Source of the DNA: a virus
Length of the DNA: 64,000 bases
IMG/VR virus record: IMGVR_UViG_3300021963_000086
Location: 15,270-79,269 of that record
Direction: 5' to 3' (one strand)
Shown: piece by piece, positions 1,459-50,164 of the stretch
Layout: each line of letters begins with the position of its first letter
Position numbering within the stretch: position 1 is the stretch's first letter
Translations under genes and position numbers: made by a program
Notes under the pieces: generated by a model
Seen by the model: the letters and a program-made list of their open reading frames with translations, nothing else
The model's database searches: none
Told to the model about the DNA's origin: nothing

Positions 1459-3336
1459 ATGGCACTATCAGTAAGAGCAGGACAAGTTAGAAGTCATCTT
1501 AAAGACGATCCCGGTGGCAGAATTAATTCAGCCTCGGGCGTTTATATTGCTATTGTTAAAAACAATAAAGATGATTTAAACATGGGCCGCTTGCAAGTAT
1601 GGGTGCCCGAGATGAAAGGTAACCCAGACGATGCTTCTAATTGGATCTGGGTAAGCTATTGCAGTCCTTTTGCAGGAGCCACTAATCCAGAATCATTAGG
1701 TGGTGATGTTAAAACTAGTTCGCAACTTGCTTATGGATTTTGGGCTGTGCCCCCTGACTTAAACAATGAAGTCATAGTTGCATTTCCTAGCGGAGATACT
1801 GCAAAGGGTGTTTGGATAGGCGGGTTATTCCAGCAGGCAAATACTTATTCTGTTCCGGGGCTACCTAGGGGTAAGGTATATGCAGGAGATAATACAGGGG
1901 AATTGCCTAGTGCTGAAAAGAGCAAACGAGATTTAGATAATGATGCAAGTTTGCGCCCTAAGCATTCCACGCTAGCAGATGCACTACAACAACAAGGTTT
2001 AGATAAAGATTATATTAGAGGTTTAACTGATAGCGGAGCACATAGAGAAAGCCCGAGTCAGGTCGTAGGCTTATTAACACCAGGACAACATCAGTTTGTA
2101 ATGGATGATGCTGGCAACAATAATGGTATTAGATTACGTACAGCACACGGCGCACAGATTTTTATTAGTGATGCCTTTGGTATGGTTTATATCATTAATA
2201 GAGATGGTACTGCATGGTTTGAGTTGAGTGCCGACGGTCACATTGATGCTTACAGCGATAGCGGTATAAACTTTCACACTAACGGTGACTTTAATATACG
2301 TGCAGGCGGTAACGTTAACATCGAAGCAGGTGCAGGCATTAACATGGCCGCCGGCGGAGACTGGAAACTAAGTGCCGCAGGTACTGGTAACATTGGTGTT
2401 GCCCAAAAGTTAATTATAGCCGGCTCAGAAACACACATCAATGGAGAAGCTCCTGGTGTTCCTACAGTACACGGCCTAGCAGTTAACAGCGGTATTAGAA
2501 ATAGTGTTGCCAGTCGTGTGCCAGAACACGAACCATGGAGAGGACACGTTAACGTACCGCCTCCTGCCCTTGCAGGATCAAATGCGGCTATTACACCAAC
2601 TTCTGACCCTAACGCATCTAGCGAACCCCTTAACACAGATGACATTAATCCAAGCGAAAACGTTGACAATATCACTTGTAAGCCACTACAAGAACTACAC
2701 ATCAGCAAGCAAGGTGTAGATTTTATTTTAGGTCTCGAAAGTTATCGTCCTATCGACTACTGGGATTATAGATATAACAGTATTGGTTTTGGACATTTAC
2801 AACAACCTGGTATTGCTCATGACAAACCTGGGGAGTTCGACAACGGCTTAACATACGACGAAGCATACAATAAGTTCCTACAAGACATACAGGCATTTGA
2901 AAAGAGTGTTAAAAGTCGTTGGAGTAAAACAAAATGTATGACCCAGCCGCAATTTGATGCAATTATCAGTGGATGCTACAACATGGGTGTAGGTGGTTTT
3001 AGTGGTATACAATACAAAGGTAAAAGTATATCTGAGTGGGGCGCCGATGGTAACTGGGATGCCGTTGCACAAGGCATGACAGAATGTAAAGCTGAAAACG
3101 GTCGTAGATTAAAAGAAGTACAAGTATTAAAAGCTGGCAGTTATCCCCAAGGCATAACTAAAGCCGCATTAGAAAATACAGGCAAGACAGTTGTTAAACG
3201 TCAGATTGAAGGCGGTACAGGTGCACCTATTAAAGGACCAGAAGTGGGTCCTGGACGATATAAACCTATTATTGGAACGCCAACTGAAAGACAAAAACGT
3301 CAGTGGCAAGAAGCTAAGAAAAGAGCAGGCTGGTAA
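1459..3336 (+). CDS. gp5-like baseplate spike (OB-fold + beta-helix) with C-terminal GH24 lysozyme domain
   Basis: N-terminal 'D...MGRLQVWVPE...YGFWAVPPDLNNEVIVAF' OB-fold, Gly/Asn-rich beta-strand repeats, tip motif 'RVPEHEPWRGH', then 'ISKQGVDFILGLE...D...SIGFGH...TQPQFDAIIS..YNMG...RRLKE' lysozyme. Confidence 0.85.
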   Translation: MALSVRAGQVRSHLKDDPGGRINSASGVYIAIVKNNKDDLNMGRLQVWVPEMKGNPDDASNWIWVSYCSPFAGATNPESLGGDVKTSSQLAYGFWAVPPDLNNEVIVAFPSGDTAKGVWIGGLFQQANTYSVPGLPRGKVYAGDNTGELPSAEKSKRDLDNDASLRPKHSTLADALQQQGLDKDYIRGLTDSGAHRESPSQVVGLLTPGQHQFVMDDAGNNNGIRLRTAHGAQIFISDAFGMVYIINRDGTAWFELSADGHIDAYSDSGINFHTNGDFNIRAGGNVNIEAGAGINMAAGGDWKLSAAGTGNIGVAQKLIIAGSETHINGEAPGVPTVHGLAVNSGIRNSVASRVPEHEPWRGHVNVPPPALAGSNAAITPTSDPNASSEPLNTDDINPSENVDNITCKPLQELHISKQGVDFILGLESYRPIDYWDYRYNSIGFGHLQQPGIAHDKPGEFDNGLTYDEAYNKFLQDIQAFEKSVKSRWSKTKCMTQPQFDAIISGCYNMGVGGFSGIQYKGKSISEWGADGNWDAVAQGMTECKAENGRRLKEVQVLKAGSYPQGITKAALENTGKTVVKRQIEGGTGAPIKGPEVGPGRYKPIIGTPTERQKRQWQEAKKRAGW

Positions 3337-14825: not shown

Positions 14826-17800
14826 ATGGACAACAATCGTTTTTCAGCTACTCCAGTAGTACCCGTTAATAATACAGTACCTGGGGAAGGCTCAGGTAAA
14901 GTTGTAGATACAGTATCTAGTAATTTCTTGCCTCAATACTATAAAACAGACGGAAATGTAAAATTTTTAAGAAACACTTTAGATCAGTTAATTAGTAAAG
15001 GTGCTCAAGAACAAGTTAACTTATATGTTGGTAAAAAAAGCGGAACAGTTTATAAACCGGCCACTGATTTTTATTTAAAAGAATCAAGACAAGACCGTTC
15101 TGACTATCAATTAGAAGTAGGTATAGTAACAAAGGATGCCGATGATAACATCACATCTACATTAACCTATGACGATATCATTCAAGAGCTTAAAGTAAAC
15201 TGGCCGCTAACTAAACCTGATCAATTTGATAGCGAATATTACAGCTATACTCCTCCTGTAGACTATGATAAATTTGTTAACTTTACTAGCTACAATTGGA
15301 TGAAATTAGGCCTTCCTGGCATTATGATCGAAGGCGACATTAATATTGAAACAGACATCATTGGCAAAATTAACTATACTACGCCGGTGCAACGCAACGG
15401 AAAAACTATAACGTTCCAGAACGGGATGAAAGTCTATTTTATTAACAATGGAGCAGATCCCCAAGGTTTAGTTATTCCAAATTGGTACGTAAGCGAAAAG
15501 AATCCTGTAATTACTAATGAAGACGGAAATCCGTTGCTGACCCAAGACGGTGCAGAACTAATGAGCACCAACGAAGATGCCGAGCCTACGTATTTTATTG
15601 TAGAGGGTGTTGGCGAATCTATTATGCTTATACCTGCAGAGTACATGGATGCACGTATCCCAGGTAGTTTAATGGCTCCAGTTCCATGGGATTCTGTACC
15701 ATGGGATCGCAAGAAATTTGATACTTCAGAGCCCGCGCCAGCAGAAAAAGAATATGTAGTAATACAAAGAGGTTCGGTCGACAAAAACGCATGGAGCCGA
15801 ATTAATAATTGGTATCATATTGATACAATTAAAGATGTATACAATTATTTAGGTCTTAACCACGCAGACTATGTTACCTTAGCTGATAGAGGTAATAGAC
15901 CTATTATTGAATTTAAGAAAGATACTCAACTATACAATGCAGGATCTTTCATGTCTGACATTCAAGCAGACTTTGTTTGGTACGGCGGAAAGATCAGCGA
16001 CTTTAGTTTAAAAACATCTGTTACAGTTGACGGCGTAGATGTATTCCCCGGCGCAAAAGTGTTATTCATTAATAGTCCTGAGCCGCAGTTAAACAATAAA
16101 TTAATTCGTTTGTATAAGATTACTGAAGGTACAGGTTTTTATTGGGAAGAAATCACAGAATCATGGCCTGCTCCAGAAGTAGGTCAAAAGTTGTTTATAC
16201 AAAATGGTACAGAGTACAAGTATCTAGAATTAACATGGAATGGTACTGACTGGTATGTTGGTCAAAATAAAATGACCAGAAATCAGCCACCGTTGTTTGT
16301 TATGTACGATGCAGAGGGTGTAAGATTAGACGACGAAATAAAATATCCAGACAACGATTTTAGAGGATCCTCGTTATTCCAATACACAGAAGGTAACTTC
16401 TACGACAAGGAACTTGGTCTAAATGTAATGTTAGAAAGCTCTAACTATGATATAGTATCAAACACTAGTCCTTTCTCTAAAACCTTTACTAACTTAACCT
16501 TTACAAATACTGCTTCTAATAGTAACTATTACAAAGGCAGTAAAGGTACTCGCGATGCTATACCGGGTAATTATTACTGGAAAACGGTAGATGGATTTAC
16601 TAATACTTCTAAGTACGAAAACGGTTGGGTACGTAATGCCGAACCTCCTAAAACATATCAACGTGTCGGCAAAATTGTAGAAGATGTAACTTCTCAAAAT
16701 AGTATTATTGTGCCGGCAGACTCTGGCGCATGGTATGTATTTGCGGCAACACTAAAAGAGGGAAAAATTAGATTCTATTCGTTAAGTAAAAACAATGAAT
16801 GGGAGTTGTTTGATTGGTCCACAAATACACTTACTCTTGCCGCAGGACAAGAATTCGTAATATACAATTATACAGGACAAGAATTCTTCAATGTAAAACT
16901 AAATGGATTGCTTCCACCTGGAGTTGCTAACGAAGGTAGTGTAGTATACGGTACACCGCAAGATGTAGGAATGTGGCAATACAGTACTGCCGGAATTTCT
17001 GGTTATATCAATATCATTGATCCTAAAACTGATACTAGAACATTTAAAGTTAGAGTCAATGGTAAGGACACTACTGATTACACAACTGAATTAGTTAACA
17101 ACTATACAGGATTACAAATTAATGTCACTGCTGATTTAGCAGTTAATGATTTAATTGAAGTATTGTTTGAATCAGCTACACCTGCAGGTTCATATGCTAT
17201 TCATAGCACCCTTGAGGCTAATCCTAATAATGAAAAAGTAGAACAGTTTACTTACAGTGATATACTAAGTCACTTTAAGAGTAAAATTACAAATCAGTCA
17301 AACTTTGAAGGAAGCGGCTACGGCTCAAATAACTATCACAAGTTATTTAGAGATACTGGTACTGGTTGGGTAGTTCAACAACAAGTACACCCAATGGTTA
17401 AGCTAGGTGTATTATTACGCAACAATGCAACATTACCTAATAACGTGTTACAATATGGCGCCGAACAAAATAAACTATTCCGTCAAAAGTTTATTAACAA
17501 ACTAACTAGCCTAGAGTCAACATTAGACGTTACTAGTAAAACTGCTAGAGAATTAGTGTACGAAAGTTTAATTGCTATTAATGTAGGTAAAAATAGAGAT
17601 TTTCCTTTTGCATTTAGCGATATGATCTACTATGTAGATTCTGATGCAAAGGTTATCAAGACATATACCGCAGAATCAGTATTAACATTTAGTTTAGGAA
17701 CAACCATTGACATTACTGATCCTTATAGAGATCATGTATATGTATATGCCAACGATGTTCAATTATTAATCGATAGAGATTACACATTAACCAACACTAG

Positions 17801-43386: not shown

Positions 43387-43439
43387 AAAGTATCTCCTGA
43401 TACAAGTTAAAGAACACTAGCACCTTGCTAGTAACCATA

Positions 43440-44482: not shown

Positions 44483-45056
44483 CGAGGCTCCATACTAGTG
44501 TGTTGTCGTTTAAATTTTTACGTAAGTCTTCTTTAGACATATTAAAGCCGTACATTGTATATTTGGCCCAACGTTCTAAAAATCCTTCATTATTGAATCG
44601 TGATAGGCGGAGGTGACGAGTGTGCAAATCTTCGATTACTTGTTCTGTTGTATAAAATTTACCTTCGCCGTTAGTAGCTATCTGACATACAGTAAAGTCA
44701 AAGTCGTTGAACACAGATTCTAGATTAGGAAACTTTTTCCTAACAATAATTTGAAGCTTCCATTTATTGTTGTCGTTGCACCAACCATCATCACCTTTTA
44801 AAGGAAAGTAATCAAATGTAAGAGCGTTATCTGTGCTAAAGGTAATACCAACACCTAAGTGTTCGTGGAATCTATTAGTGAGGTCTAAGATTTGTGCAGG
44901 ATTTCCTACCCAGATATCAATGTCATTAATAGGTTCGTCTTGCCATAGACATCTAGCACAACCGCCAGCAATCCACGGACCTGTTTTATAATTAGGCTGT
45001 ATTGCTTTTACAATTTGCTTTGGTAATTTTTTTGGACCTTGAAAGGAATAAATCAT
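44460..45056 (-). CDS. Nucleotidyltransferase (CCA/poly(A)-polymerase head-like)
   Basis: 'WIAGGCAR...INDIDIW' (DxD) and 'FDFTVCQIA'. Confidence 0.75.
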   Translation of the reverse strand: MIYSFQGPKKLPKQIVKAIQPNYKTGPWIAGGCARCLWQDEPINDIDIWVGNPAQILDLTNRFHEHLGVGITFSTDNALTFDYFPLKGDDGWCNDNNKWKLQIIVRKKFPNLESVFNDFDFTVCQIATNGEGKFYTTEQVIEDLHTRHLRLSRFNNEGFLERWAKYTMYGFNMSKEDLRKNLNDNTLVWSLGDGRSLY

Positions 45057-45208
45057 TCCTCTGCTTTCTTAGGGTGTTTAGGTTTGCGTTTATATGCTTT
45101 CTTTTGTTCTTCTATACGGCCGCGAAAAGGCAACGTGTTATCAAATAATGCTTGATGAGCACGTACCTTAGGAGCCTTAATAACAAAAGAAAGGGCTTTG
45201 GTTTTCAT
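45053..45208 (-). CDS. ArfA-like small basic protein (51 aa; not in ORF track)
   Basis: MKTKALSFVIKAPKVRAHQALFDNTLPFRGRIEEQKKAYKRKPKHPKKAEE; ATGA-coupled to the NTase gene. Confidence 0.55.
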   Translation of the reverse strand: MKTKALSFVIKAPKVRAHQALFDNTLPFRGRIEEQKKAYKRKPKHPKKAEE

Positions 45209-45214
45209 GATAGT

Positions 45215-45397
45215 CTATTTACTCAGATCAAAAGAACTGAAGTCGTTTTCTCTAATTTTCTTTGCTTCTTGTTTAAGAATACCTGCCATAACTTCAAGTG
45301 TTTTGGCCTGCATTTCTGAAGTGGTATTTGGATCTCGCAAGACTTCAATACCATTGTCTAGGATGGTCTTAATACCTTCTATGCTCATATGATTCAT
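45215..45397 (-). CDS. Small hypothetical protein, probably leaderless
   Basis: ATG at 45397 lies 7 bp from the -10 box of TTGATT-17-TATAAT (45405-45433). Confidence 0.55.
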   Translation of the reverse strand: MNHMSIEGIKTILDNGIEVLRDPNTTSEMQAKTLEVMAGILKQEAKKIRENDFSSFDLSK

Positions 45398-45429
45398 GCT
45401 ATACATTATACTGCCTTTCTTATTAAAAA

Positions 45430-45744
45430 TCAAGTATGCTCGATGTAGTTAATACCGGCCATTTCGATAGCACGTTGGCAAACTGGGCAAGGTTTGGCTA
45501 ACAATGGCTCTCCGCTATTTCCGAACCTAGTAACTACTATCTTATGCGCCTTAGTCCAATCTCTGCACTTTACTAGTGCATCTATTTCTGCATGAAGATA
45601 AATCTTTTCGTGCAACCCAACTTGGCTTGCGATTCGAGCTTGCAACGGATGGGTCTTAATATAACTATTCTTACCCATACCAATGATACGACCTTTCTTG
45701 TCGTAAACAATAGCAGTGATGTTCTGCTTAACCCTAGTTTTCAT
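45430..45744 (-). CDS. Zn-dependent cytidine/dCMP-deaminase-fold protein
   Basis: 'LHAEIDAL' and 'KPCPVC'. Confidence 0.85.
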   Translation of the reverse strand: MKTRVKQNITAIVYDKKGRIIGMGKNSYIKTHPLQARIASQVGLHEKIYLHAEIDALVKCRDWTKAHKIVVTRFGNSGEPLLAKPCPVCQRAIEMAGINYIEHT

Positions 45745-46049
45745 ACCGACAAAGTAGCCCAGAATGCTAGTTGTTGCAAGTCAGTTTCAAACTCCGGATA
45801 GACCTTATCTAGGTCTTCTTTGAAGATTTTATTGTAACCTTTTTTGTGTTTAGAGTTTACAAGCTTCTCCATGTTCCACGTTGACGAATGATCGATGACT
45901 TTGTGTTGCAATTTCTTGCCCCGGCGCCCCCAGGCTGTGACAAAGGTACCACCCCACTTGTCGCCATTGAGTTGAATACAAACCCAGACCTTGTCGTGAT
46001 TGTCTTCCCGACACCAACCAATGAAATTGTATTCCATTAGGCGCTCCAA
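45741..46049 (-). CDS. WGR-domain-like protein
   Basis: 'HDKVW...VTAWGRRG...K.KKGY'. Confidence 0.65.
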   Translation of the reverse strand: MERLMEYNFIGWCREDNHDKVWVCIQLNGDKWGGTFVTAWGRRGKKLQHKVIDHSSTWNMEKLVNSKHKKGYNKIFKEDLDKVYPEFETDLQQLAFWATLSV

Positions 46050-46341: not shown

Positions 46342-46424
46342 ATTATAGCAGAATTGGAATTATTGGTCAACCAGTAGAAAAACCCTGTGGTTAGCAGGGT
46401 TTTTAGTGTTGTATTAATACAACA
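46342..46424 (-). promoter_or_regulatory. Early cassette: palindrome + stem-loop + sigma70 promoter
   Basis: TGTTGTATTAATACAACA (46407-46424); hairpin AAAAACCCTG...CAGGGTTTTT (46378-46404); TTGACC-17-TATAAT (46342-46370). Confidence 0.8.
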
Positions 46425-47254: not shown

Positions 47255-47689
47255 TTACTTTCCTGTGTGATAGGTTTGATGAAAAATATCTTTCTTAATT
47301 ACACCGTAGTCATTTGGACCATGCTTTACGATATAATCTTCTCCAGTGTTATATTGTAACTTCTCTCCCCAGCTTGTGTCAACCGTTCCGGAATGATCAG
47401 CTAGCTTTGCGACCTTCAAAATCTTTTTGGGTGTGCAAACACCGTTGCCCAAATCGTCTTTAAGTTCCGCAAACTTTTTTGGAGTGATTGGATACTTCTC
47501 TCCTTTTGGACCAGTCATGATGTAGAATCCTGCATCATATTTTACTGGCCCTTCAAGGGTTTCAATAGTACCCGGCTCCTTAGCAATCTCGTAATGTTCT
47601 TTGGCCGGCTTCTTATATGTTTCAAAGCCGTCATTGAACCAATCGTCGGTAAGAGTCTTACCTTCTACAATGTTAATATATTGTCTCAT
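47255..47689 (-). CDS. PGDYG-like protein (duplicated unit)
   Basis: 'IETLEG...YIMTGPKGEKYPI...F' and 'VDTSWGE...GEDYIV.HGPNDYGVIKKDIF..TY'. Confidence 0.7.
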   Translation of the reverse strand: MRQYINIVEGKTLTDDWFNDGFETYKKPAKEHYEIAKEPGTIETLEGPVKYDAGFYIMTGPKGEKYPITPKKFAELKDDLGNGVCTPKKILKVAKLADHSGTVDTSWGEKLQYNTGEDYIVKHGPNDYGVIKKDIFHQTYHTGK

Positions 47690-47989: not shown

Positions 47990-50164
47990 TTAGAAACCTT
48001 TCTTAGCATCAATTAGATTGATATACTCGGCAATGTCTTCACCTTTAACACGGTAGCTGTTCAATTTTGATAGCAAAGGATACCGAGCATTGACATTGGT
48101 AAGTTCAGCTTGATATTTAACGATCAAATCATCTGGACTCATGCTAGTGTCTTCACCTAGGAATCGCTTGCACAATTTTGAAATAGTGTACTTGTTAGCA
48201 GAAGTCTTTGGAACGTTCTTAAACACTTCCATAAACTTAGCATACGGACTCTTAGGATCAATCATGGCGCATACTTTTGCATTGTCAGTTAGCGTCATAA
48301 TGTCATTATCATCCAATGATGACTTAACAATACTCATTAATGTCTTTTGCAAAGATGCTTTAAGCACCCTAGCAATATGCACTTCCAAGTTAACCCAGTT
48401 CACTTGTTGCTTAACCCATTCGAGGTCTGTTTTACGAACTCCGTAAACGGAACCTTCAAACAAGTTATCCACTGACGTAATTTCATCTAGCAGTTCCTTG
48501 CCACTACTGTAACCTTTGTCACTGATCATATTAAAACCAGACAAAGGAACATAGTAGTAAGTGCGATTGGAATCAAATTCGTCAGCCTTGCCTGCATCAC
48601 GCCACACCATTTCACGACTGCGATGATAGTTTCGGCCACCACGTTCTTCAAGACGCATAATAGTAACGTCTTTGCCTAGGCTACTTGACTTACGTTCTTT
48701 TGCCAACAACGAGCTAGCAGGAAAGATACGAGCCTCTGGAGGATTTTGAATCTTGTCAAAGAACAAGTTCAATAGCATTGGCTTAGTCTTGTCAGCAGGC
48801 TCTAGCACATAAACATTACGGCAGTATACATCACACGGTGTTTCTCGATAGTGATGTTTGGCACGTTCTACAGCACCAGTCCTAAGATCATTGATAATAA
48901 AGTGACAGTCTTTTTCTACACGAATAGAAAAGGCATCCCATGTAATATAATGACCACTTTTCTTAGCACGGTTCTTACCGTACTCAGTAGTGTTTTTAAG
49001 ATTGGTAATAGTTTTCTGACCGCGATGCTTTTGAAGCCCACGAATAGAAATGTTGTACTTACGTGCGATACTATCTACACCAAGTTTGAATGTACGAGGA
49101 CCACCGTCATGCTTATCAGAATAAGTAGGCAACGGGTTTTGTGCAAGATATTGCACAATAGCGGCACGCCACAGAGCTTGACTTCTCTTTTCTGAGATAT
49201 AGACAGCACGTTCCCATAGATTATCAATCTTGTTTGCTTCGTCAGCAAATCGTATAGTTAGAACATTGTTAAGAGATTCTAGCTTGTTCTTAATAGCTTC
49301 GATGGTTTGTGGAATGTAAGACAAGCCTTCGCGTGATGCTTGGAAGTCCAATTCACCGATGGCGAATTCCATTACTAGACCACAGCCTAGCAAGTGATAC
49401 AGTTCAGACAGATCCTTGCGGTTAGCTTCTGGAAGCTCAATGCGATATGCAATATTTCCCATTACCGCATAAGATGCACTACCTTCAGCGGAATGAACAC
49501 CCGGAATAATATCCTTGTCAATGTATTCAACATCACTGAAGGTAAATGTAGCATACCCAGATACCACAGGTCGTTGTTTGAACCATTTGTAAACTGCACG
49601 GGCTTCGTCGCGGAACTTAGAAAAATCCCAACGATCATTGACAGAAAATTTAACCTCAACGCCGCTGGGGTCTGTAGTTTCTTCTTCCATCATCAAGGCA
49701 ATACTAGGAACACCTTGCTCGTTGATAAAGGCTGTATAGATACCTTTACGACCGTCCTTAATAGCGGTTACAGTAAAGTTATCAGTGTAAGAAAAAGGAG
49801 ACTTACTACCAAGCCCAAGAGCACCAATAAAGTCGTTTGAATCAGTCTTAGTAGATTCAAAGTATGTTGTATAGATGTTAGAAACTTGATCATGTGATAG
49901 CCCTGTGCCGTAGTCACGAATAGCGAACCACGGTTCTAGGTCATTAGGAAGGTGAACATCAAATGGAGTATCAATTCGTCCTGCGGCAACGTGACTGTCG
50001 ATAGCATTGCATGACAGTTCACGAATGATGGCTTTGATCTTGTTAGCATATAGACCAGAGCTTAGAATGTTAAATGCCTTAGCAGAGTTGCGAATGCGGA
50101 ACTCACCAATCTCACCGACATTACTCATGATGGCCTCGTTTTGAGGCGCCTTTGTAATAATCAT
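47990..50164 (-). CDS. rIIA: rIIA-like protein with N-terminal GHKL ATPase
   Basis: 'LYANKIKAIIRELSCNAIDSH', 'IRDYGTGL', 'STK..SND.IGALGLGSKSPF', 'SREGLSY'. Confidence 0.9.
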   Translation of the reverse strand: MIITKAPQNEAIMSNVGEIGEFRIRNSAKAFNILSSGLYANKIKAIIRELSCNAIDSHVAAGRIDTPFDVHLPNDLEPWFAIRDYGTGLSHDQVSNIYTTYFESTKTDSNDFIGALGLGSKSPFSYTDNFTVTAIKDGRKGIYTAFINEQGVPSIALMMEEETTDPSGVEVKFSVNDRWDFSKFRDEARAVYKWFKQRPVVSGYATFTFSDVEYIDKDIIPGVHSAEGSASYAVMGNIAYRIELPEANRKDLSELYHLLGCGLVMEFAIGELDFQASREGLSYIPQTIEAIKNKLESLNNVLTIRFADEANKIDNLWERAVYISEKRSQALWRAAIVQYLAQNPLPTYSDKHDGGPRTFKLGVDSIARKYNISIRGLQKHRGQKTITNLKNTTEYGKNRAKKSGHYITWDAFSIRVEKDCHFIINDLRTGAVERAKHHYRETPCDVYCRNVYVLEPADKTKPMLLNLFFDKIQNPPEARIFPASSLLAKERKSSSLGKDVTIMRLEERGGRNYHRSREMVWRDAGKADEFDSNRTYYYVPLSGFNMISDKGYSSGKELLDEITSVDNLFEGSVYGVRKTDLEWVKQQVNWVNLEVHIARVLKASLQKTLMSIVKSSLDDNDIMTLTDNAKVCAMIDPKSPYAKFMEVFKNVPKTSANKYTISKLCKRFLGEDTSMSPDDLIVKYQAELTNVNARYPLLSKLNSYRVKGEDIAEYINLIDAKKGF

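Follow-up and report, generated by a model that had tools for sequence, protein, structure and literature searches.

A probable phage-borne relative of the ribosome-rescue factor ArfA, 51 residues long, without the GKG loop and with its own stop codon

Can a phage carry its own ribosome-rescue factor, in a gene shorter than the default limit of an open reading frame (ORF) lister? The question is raised by a 64,000-nucleotide stretch of viral DNA (positions 15,270 to 79,269 of IMG/VR record IMGVR_UViG_3300021963_000086; hereafter the window). An ORF of 51 residues in this window, below the lister's 60-residue default, had been read from the sequence alone as an ArfA-like rescue micro-protein. 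The ORF exists as described, the segment that this sequence-only reading quoted corresponds to its residues 20–45, and the Escherichia coli ArfA segment quoted for comparison agrees with arfA in NC_000913.3 and in a second E. coli genome. Profile comparisons indicate that the peptide is very probably a distant homologue of ArfA, even though it stands outside ArfA by Pfam's rule. As to its activity, the preferred interpretation, held with moderate confidence, is that it is a minimal phage-borne ArfA homologue that acts as a constitutive, release-factor-dependent ribosome-rescue factor.

The 51-residue ORF is a real gene under purifying selection. A word-indexed search with the peptide returned six close homologues of 45–53 residues, and an exhaustive phmmer search of 1.84 billion representatives at 50% identity returned 38 at E<=0.001. 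From phage and metagenome data, a profile built from 43 family sequences then recovered at least 267 clusters (90% identity), on contigs of up to ~360 kb. Copies of the gene are found on 37 IMG/VR viral contigs, and the median length among 148 cluster representatives of the family is 52 residues. Compared with its two nearest loci, the gene has a ratio of nonsynonymous to synonymous change (pN/pS) of 0.09–0.19, with synonymous sites near saturation (pS 0.63–0.70), and the ratio inside a second subgroup of the family is 0.15. An untranslated chance ORF might be suspected from the shortness of the frame and from the lack of a clear Shine–Dalgarno sequence upstream of its ATG. However, such low ratios despite near-saturated synonymous divergence, the hundreds of conserved homologues of equal length, and the tight packing of the gene among coding genes on the same strand leave this explanation with a negligible probability.

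The family seems to be restricted to phages; its members have so far come only from phage and metagenome sequences. When 185,579 bacterial species genomes were scanned for the core motif H[KQR]ALFD[NDQ][DTE]L, no confirmed relative emerged, although only this single motif was scanned and variant bacterial copies are possible. Among 50,697 phage records, neither megablast with the locus nor tblastn with the 51-residue peptide found a match, and tblastn with two other family members found a sole, weak match in Pseudoalteromonas phage J2-1. Searches of PHROGs and NCBIfam with the peptide assigned no family.

Kinship with ArfA is best seen when profiles are compared. The Pfam ArfA family (PF03889) is one of only two Pfam families matched by the peptide, and one of two that recur across its relatives; a six-frame search of the contig with PF03889 gave no match. 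When the family profile was run against 177,635 PDB sequences, all six matches were ArfA chains (E 0.05–0.7). A single-sequence phmmer search of PDB missed ArfA, and its top match was a spurious protein A repeat. Alignment of the family with ten enteric ArfAs by hhalign gave a probability of 86.9% over 37 columns (P 4.1e-6), and P was 5e-6 once three diverse gammaproteobacterial ArfAs had joined the enteric set. In a protein-language-model Atlas, the nearest clusters include an ArfA cluster and a cluster of the Pfam family DUF7230 (0.93), and many relatives carry the IMG name ‘stalled ribosome alternative rescue factor ArfA’.

Because peptides rich in lysine and arginine invite false matches, a shuffle control was run, in which the columns of the ArfA alignment were permuted 300 times while composition was kept. 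The shuffled alignments scored 9.1 +/- 2.1 in hhalign and at most 16.8, while the real scores were 29.7–32.8, so that none of the 300 shuffles reached the real value; the reversed ArfA alignment scored 9.7. The sequence-only reading had named a hidden Markov model (HMM) search against the ArfA family as a check on its proposal. The outcome is divided: the direct match stays below the Pfam cut-off, but the profile–profile similarity is supported (hhalign P ~4e-6).

A single phage protein links the two families. Phage J2-1 encodes ATN93434.1 (MF988720.1, 63035-63190), a protein of 51 residues that GenBank names ‘alternative ribosome-rescue factor A’. Its match to Pfam ArfA spans the entire model and exceeds the cut-off (41.3 bits against 25.5, E 1.1e-10), as does its match to DUF7230 (PF23876; 28.6 bits against 27). 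In hhalign comparisons it is almost equally close to the peptide family (94.8%, P 5e-8) and to enteric ArfA (94.5%, P 7e-8), and by these alignments it bridges them. Like the peptide, it is phage-borne, has a true stop and the same tail, and is missing G-K-G at the same place. Unlike the peptide, it has an N-terminal half of the bacterial ArfA type and passes the Pfam ArfA threshold.

DUF7230 is also the best Pfam match of the 51-residue protein itself, at 17.1 bits (E 0.006), below the 27-bit gathering cut-off. Fifteen of the 43 relatives match it at E<1, with a best value of 1.9e-6, and the region matched is the tail; PF23876 also appears in the precomputed annotation of three relatives (P0014, P0042 and P0209). 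In a whole E. coli genome, the best match of the DUF7230 model is arfA. Since the J2-1 protein passes both models and the DUF7230 model picks out arfA in E. coli, the DUF7230 and ArfA Pfam families seem to overlap; they look related, and they might fit into one clan. The family aligned weakly (hhalign P 0.02) with one bacterial DUF7230 member, a protein of 76 residues from E. coli's phylum (L125:1480-1710, +; 46.2 bits). The front half of this protein is basic and is followed by a long C-terminal extension rich in hydrophobic residues, an arrangement reminiscent of full-length ArfA and of BrfA, the rescue factor of Bacillus subtilis. Its gene is flanked by a Fic-like gene on one side and an Mrr-like restriction gene on the other. 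Full-text searches of the literature found no paper on DUF7230.

The evidence so far bears on a rival explanation, according to which the peptide is a small basic nucleic-acid-binding protein, such as an RNA chaperone, a DNA- or RNA-binding peptide or a packaging factor, and resembles ArfA only through convergence of lysine- and arginine-rich motifs. Every direct HMM match is indeed sub-threshold, PHROGs and NCBIfam are silent, and ArfA-like tails arose independently in BrfA and in ArfT of Francisella tularensis, the three factors being thought to be independent inventions (PMC8012679). However, composition-preserving shuffles never came near the real profile score, the match spans the non-basic hydrophobic core as well as the tail, and a bridge sequence above the curated ArfA threshold joins both families. 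Convergence is consequently an improbable account of the likeness.

Which parts of ArfA have been kept can be read from column statistics over the 148 cluster representatives (segments are listed in Table 1). In the hhalign alignment, ArfA A18, L19, F25 and R26 correspond to A20, L21, F28 and R29 of the peptide, R28-V29-E30 to R31-I32-E33, and the L24 position to L26/P27. In the tail, Y39, R41, K42 and K44-H45 of ArfA correspond to residues of the same numbers. Core conservation is high: L21 is found in 100% of representatives, F22 in 99%, L26 in 89%, P27 in 97%, F28 in 100%, arginine or lysine at position 31 in 99%, V32 and E33 in 78% each, and D23 in >90%. Tail values are similar, with Y39 at 93%, R41 at 100%, K44 at 99% and H45 at 93%.

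These positions are meaningful in view of the known ArfA structures. By cryo-electron microscopy, the hydrophobic patch of ArfA L19, L24 and F25 binds W319, V198 and F217 of release factor 2 (RF2), A18 belongs to the core of the RF2-activating minidomain, and residues 31–48 are inside the mRNA tunnel (PMC5378476). Residues Q27–E30 contribute an extra beta-strand to RF2, and a pocket in the entry channel receives the KH motif; ArfA and RF2 are matched to each other species by species (PMC8012679). As judged by alignment, it is the RF2-contact and tunnel-contact positions of ArfA that are most conserved in the peptide family. The alignment and family statistics also bear out the claim that AL, FR.R.E..KK and Y.RK.KH are retained while GKGS is gone.

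The end of the gene differs from that of E. coli arfA, whose non-stop mRNA is truncated at a hairpin, and whose product transfer-messenger RNA (tmRNA) tags for destruction and keeps suppressed (PMC8012679). In the peptide gene, a TGA stop comes 6 residues past the KH motif, compared with a median of 8 for the family, and a stop lies a few residues after the motif in all 37 viral loci. The hydrophobic C-terminal tail is missing. A consensus scan found no terminator-like site within or just after the gene, and the RNA fold of 45020-45230 is not significant (z = -1.8). Together, the own stop, the missing hydrophobic tail and the lack of an internal hairpin suggest constitutive synthesis, independent of the tmRNA status of the host. 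The true stop had been said to fall near the active length of ArfA, and this holds: the peptide has 51 residues, while active truncated ArfA has 54–55, that is, 72 minus the last 17–18, with 46–48 ordered on the ribosome (PMC8012679). No transfer RNA (tRNA) or tmRNA gene was found in the window or contig, a result of little weight, since the contig represents ~22% of the genome.

On the preferred interpretation, the peptide would act once a ribosome has run to the 3' terminus of a truncated message. Its basic tail, with Y39, R41 and K44-H45, would thread into the mRNA tunnel of the 30S subunit, which then stands empty, and the segment comprising L21, L26/P27, F28 and R31-I32-E33 would dock a class-I release factor, most likely RF2. 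Docking would proceed by beta-strand addition and hydrophobic contacts, and the release factor would be held in its open form; the nascent chain would then be hydrolysed and the ribosome recycled. Constitutive production from an early-type operon would supply the factor from early infection onwards. The phage might thereby benefit by keeping ribosomes available when infection, or ribonuclease (RNase)-type defences of the host, flood the cell with cleaved mRNA; a role against mRNA-cleaving defences is speculative. Binding to the ribosome, the identity of the partner release factor and any gain for the phage are all inferred. Complex prediction for the family alignment and E. coli RF2 scored 0.28, against a mark of 0.32, and was used neither for nor against this interpretation.

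Several observations weigh against a rescue activity of the ArfA kind. The Pfam ArfA model gives the 51-residue protein 13.7 bits (E 0.042), with a gathering cut-off of 25.5, and only 8 of the 43 relatives match at E<1, the best at 0.0034; most relatives fall below the gathering score. Short basic peptides are prone to convergent likeness. The KGKGS loop is absent: GKG[ST][YF] occurs in none of the 148 members, while the loop is present in all the enteric and three diverse bacterial ArfAs that were read, and in an ORF of Pseudomonas phage pf16 described below. Because G-K-G of this loop is missing, which appears as a three-residue gap in the alignments, the tail is three residues shorter than that of ArfA. 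The N-terminal third also differs from ArfA's, and has a near-invariant R-x-H motif (R16 98%, H18 99%) with no ArfA counterpart; consequently, the RF2-activating minidomain may form differently. Lastly, the position of A18 is Ala20 in the 51-residue protein and alanine in 80% of the family, but valine in 16% and methionine or isoleucine in ~3%, so that ~19% of members deviate. In E. coli ArfA, the A18T substitution abolishes RF2 activation and keeps binding (PMC5378476).

The peptide could, instead, be a mimic of ArfA that blocks the vacant mRNA tunnel without triggering peptide release, perhaps also trapping RF2 in a closed, inactive state. Host rescue by tmRNA-SmpB, ArfA or ArfB would then be blocked or diverted, for example so that phage proteins are not tagged or so that ribosomes on cleaved host mRNA are shut down. 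Such a role would fit a family that has kept the tail and KH motif and lost the KGKGS loop in 148 of 148 members, that has replaced the N-terminal activating minidomain with a different R-x-H module, and that has valine, methionine or isoleucine in ~19% of members where A18T lets E. coli ArfA bind RF2 without activation (PMC5378476). However, a plain channel plug would not need the RF2-contact residues, and these (L21, F28 and the R-V-E strand) are the most conserved of the family. Phages J2-1 and pf16 have near-canonical ArfAs, which argues for ordinary activity, and the window's own protein has alanine at the A18 position. A mimic is therefore regarded as unlikely.

A further proposal, rather improbable, is that the family is no plain rescue factor but a tool for hijacking stalled ribosomes by means of its R-x-H module and shortened decoding-centre loop. 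Members might either block the vacant mRNA tunnel and hold RF2 inactive, or exclude tmRNA-SmpB, and so switch off host quality control during infection; or they might recruit a release factor other than that of ArfA.

Table 1. The micro-protein gene, its segments and adjoining features, in window coordinates
Feature	Position	Strand	Basis and remarks
ArfA-like micro-protein gene (P0001), 51 residues	45053..45208	-	ORF, translation; ATG start, TGA stop included
N-terminal family-specific module, residues 1-19 (M-K...S-F-x-I...K-x-R-x-H)	45152..45208	-	column statistics, hhalign
Residues 20-33 (A-L-F-D-N-T-L-P-F-R-G-R-I-E), aligned to ArfA A18-E30	45110..45151	-	hhalign
Basic tail, residues 34-48 (Y39, R41, K42, KH motif K44-H45)	45065..45109	-	aligned to ArfA tunnel tail
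Nucleotidyltransferase-like gene, 198 residues	44460..45056	-	downstream; phrog_1614 nucleotidyltransferase 4e-15
72-residue ORF, no function assigned	45215..45433	-	upstream; homologues in L001, L002
Strong sigma-70-like promoter (TTGACC-17-TATAAT with TG), likely unit start	46342..46370	-	consensus scan, pattern match only
Terminator-like hairpin, likely end of the peptide gene's unit	43415..43433	-	consensus scan

The peptide gene belongs to a compact transcription unit (Table 1). In order, its genes are an ORF of 100 residues, a WGR-like ORF, a small cytidine/dCMP-deaminase-like ORF, the 72-residue ORF and the peptide gene, followed by the nucleotidyltransferase gene, an ORF of 145 residues and a GGACT-like cyclotransferase. 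The whole gene block is syntenic in two near relatives (L001 and L002). The TAG stop of the 72-residue ORF lies 6 nucleotides before the peptide ATG, making coupling by re-initiation likely. At the other end, the peptide TGA overlaps the nucleotidyltransferase ATG by 4 nucleotides (ATGA), as the sequence-only reading had noted in describing the two genes as coupled. The overlap is real in the window, but the two genes do not make up a functional unit that is conserved. They adjoin each other only in L001 and L002; in 35 more distant loci the peptide gene has other neighbours and no nucleotidyltransferase within the fetched flanks. A conserved link between the two genes was therefore rejected, and the ATGA coupling is best regarded as local packing, with no conserved two-gene system behind it.

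The same comparison makes it very improbable that the peptide serves the nucleotidyltransferase as an obligate partner or subunit, in a translation-repair cassette that would combine tRNA 3'-end repair with ribosome rescue. Such a partnership could draw on the ATGA overlap, found in L002 as well as in the window, on the shared gene order in L001 and L002, and on a weak match of the nucleotidyltransferase to the head domain of CCA/poly(A) polymerases (Pfam PolyA_pol head, E 0.055 only). The 35 distant viral loci speak against it, and the family assignment of the nucleotidyltransferase is itself weak. A 9-bp hairpin at 45028-45048 (-) covers both the Shine–Dalgarno-like GAGGA of the nucleotidyltransferase gene and the ATGA junction. 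The idea that this hairpin makes translation of the nucleotidyltransferase depend on that of the peptide gene was dropped, as the hairpin is not conserved in L001 or L002.

Two other genes in the region deserve mention. The WGR-like protein of 102 residues (45741-46049, -) matches Pfam WGR below threshold (E 0.0035), and in many viral loci that otherwise differ (L003–L025) a homologue lies upstream of the ArfA-like gene, at a distance of 1.6–3.7 kb. The association of WGR with the peptide gene is looser but wider than that of the nucleotidyltransferase. A 144-residue ORF (47255-47689, -) carries a PGDYG domain (PF14083), at 28.5 bits just over the cut-off.

The genome that carries the peptide gene is that of a giant T4-like phage. 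The contig is a 79-kb IMG/VR record with a CheckV completeness of 22%, which implies a genome of near 360 kb. An rIIA homologue (47990-50164, -) is 31% identical to its counterparts in Vibrio schizo-T4 phages. For a baseplate hub/tail lysozyme (1459-3336, +), identity to jumbo phages of the PA5oct type is 42%. These two matches place the contig among the T4-related jumbo myoviruses of Proteobacteria.

ArfA, BrfA and ArfT are seen as bacterial back-up systems, narrow and lineage-specific, that come into play only upon failure of tmRNA. The family described here represents a large phage clade of putative ArfA relatives in which the tmRNA-dependent switch and the KGKGS loop have been lost, but the residues that contact RF2 and the tunnel remain. 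If its members are active, phages would routinely bring a constitutive rescue factor into the cell, presumably to deal with non-stop ribosomes that arise from infection or from RNase-type defences. A minimal ArfA would then be defined by the 51-residue form, and the family would offer a natural test of the purpose of the KGKGS loop and of the N-terminal minidomain.

How, then, does the peptide compare with known systems? The closest is ArfA itself (YhdL; PF03889; PDB 5U4I, 5MDV, 5H5U, 5MGP and 7OJ0), which occurs in beta- and gammaproteobacteria, including E. coli. Both share the size of the active form, the A-L-(L/F)...(L/P)-F-R-x-R-(V/I)-E core, and the K-K...Y-x-R-K-x-K-H tail with its KH motif. 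Unlike ArfA, the peptide is phage-borne and below the Pfam cut-off, has no KGKGS loop, a different N-terminal third and its own stop, and is without the hydrophobic C-terminal extension and the RNase III/terminator hairpin, so that its expression would not be controlled by tmRNA.

Resemblance to BrfA and ArfT is one of type. These factors are also small and basic, and their tails enter the mRNA channel, but no sequence relationship with the peptide was detected (no Pfam or PDB match). BrfA is made from non-stop mRNA, and ArfT can use RF1 or RF2. BrfA also has the KH motif and, like ArfA, docks on RF2 by adding a beta-strand (PMC8012679).

Phage-borne ArfA is already known at the level of annotation only, through the IMG names, the GenBank record of J2-1 and gp30 of pelagiphage HTVC027P; full-text searches of the literature found no functional study of it. 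The gp30 protein has an ArfA domain and is transcribed both early and late in infection (PMC12753301). An additional case was observed in Pseudomonas phage pf16, where an unannotated ORF of 47 residues with its own stop lies at ~131775-131918 (-) of KU873925.1 (L127:598-741, +). It has the canonical ArfA K-K-G-K-G-S-Y and scores 72.5 bits against PF03889 (E 1.9e-20). At this site, GenBank lists only gp199, a hypothetical protein of 72 residues, on the opposite strand and in partial overlap. The cultured, T4-like Pseudomonas putida phage pf16 therefore carries a hidden, predicted ArfA gene. Like the peptide, gp30 (compared by its published description) and the pf16 ORF are phage-borne micro-genes of the ArfA type that end at a stop of their own. 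Unlike the peptide, the pf16 ORF has the KGKGS loop, and the family aligns with it at an hhalign P of 0.0013. What is new in the window, as far as sequence can tell, is a phage ArfA relative that combines the loss of GKG with its own stop and an R-x-H N-terminus.

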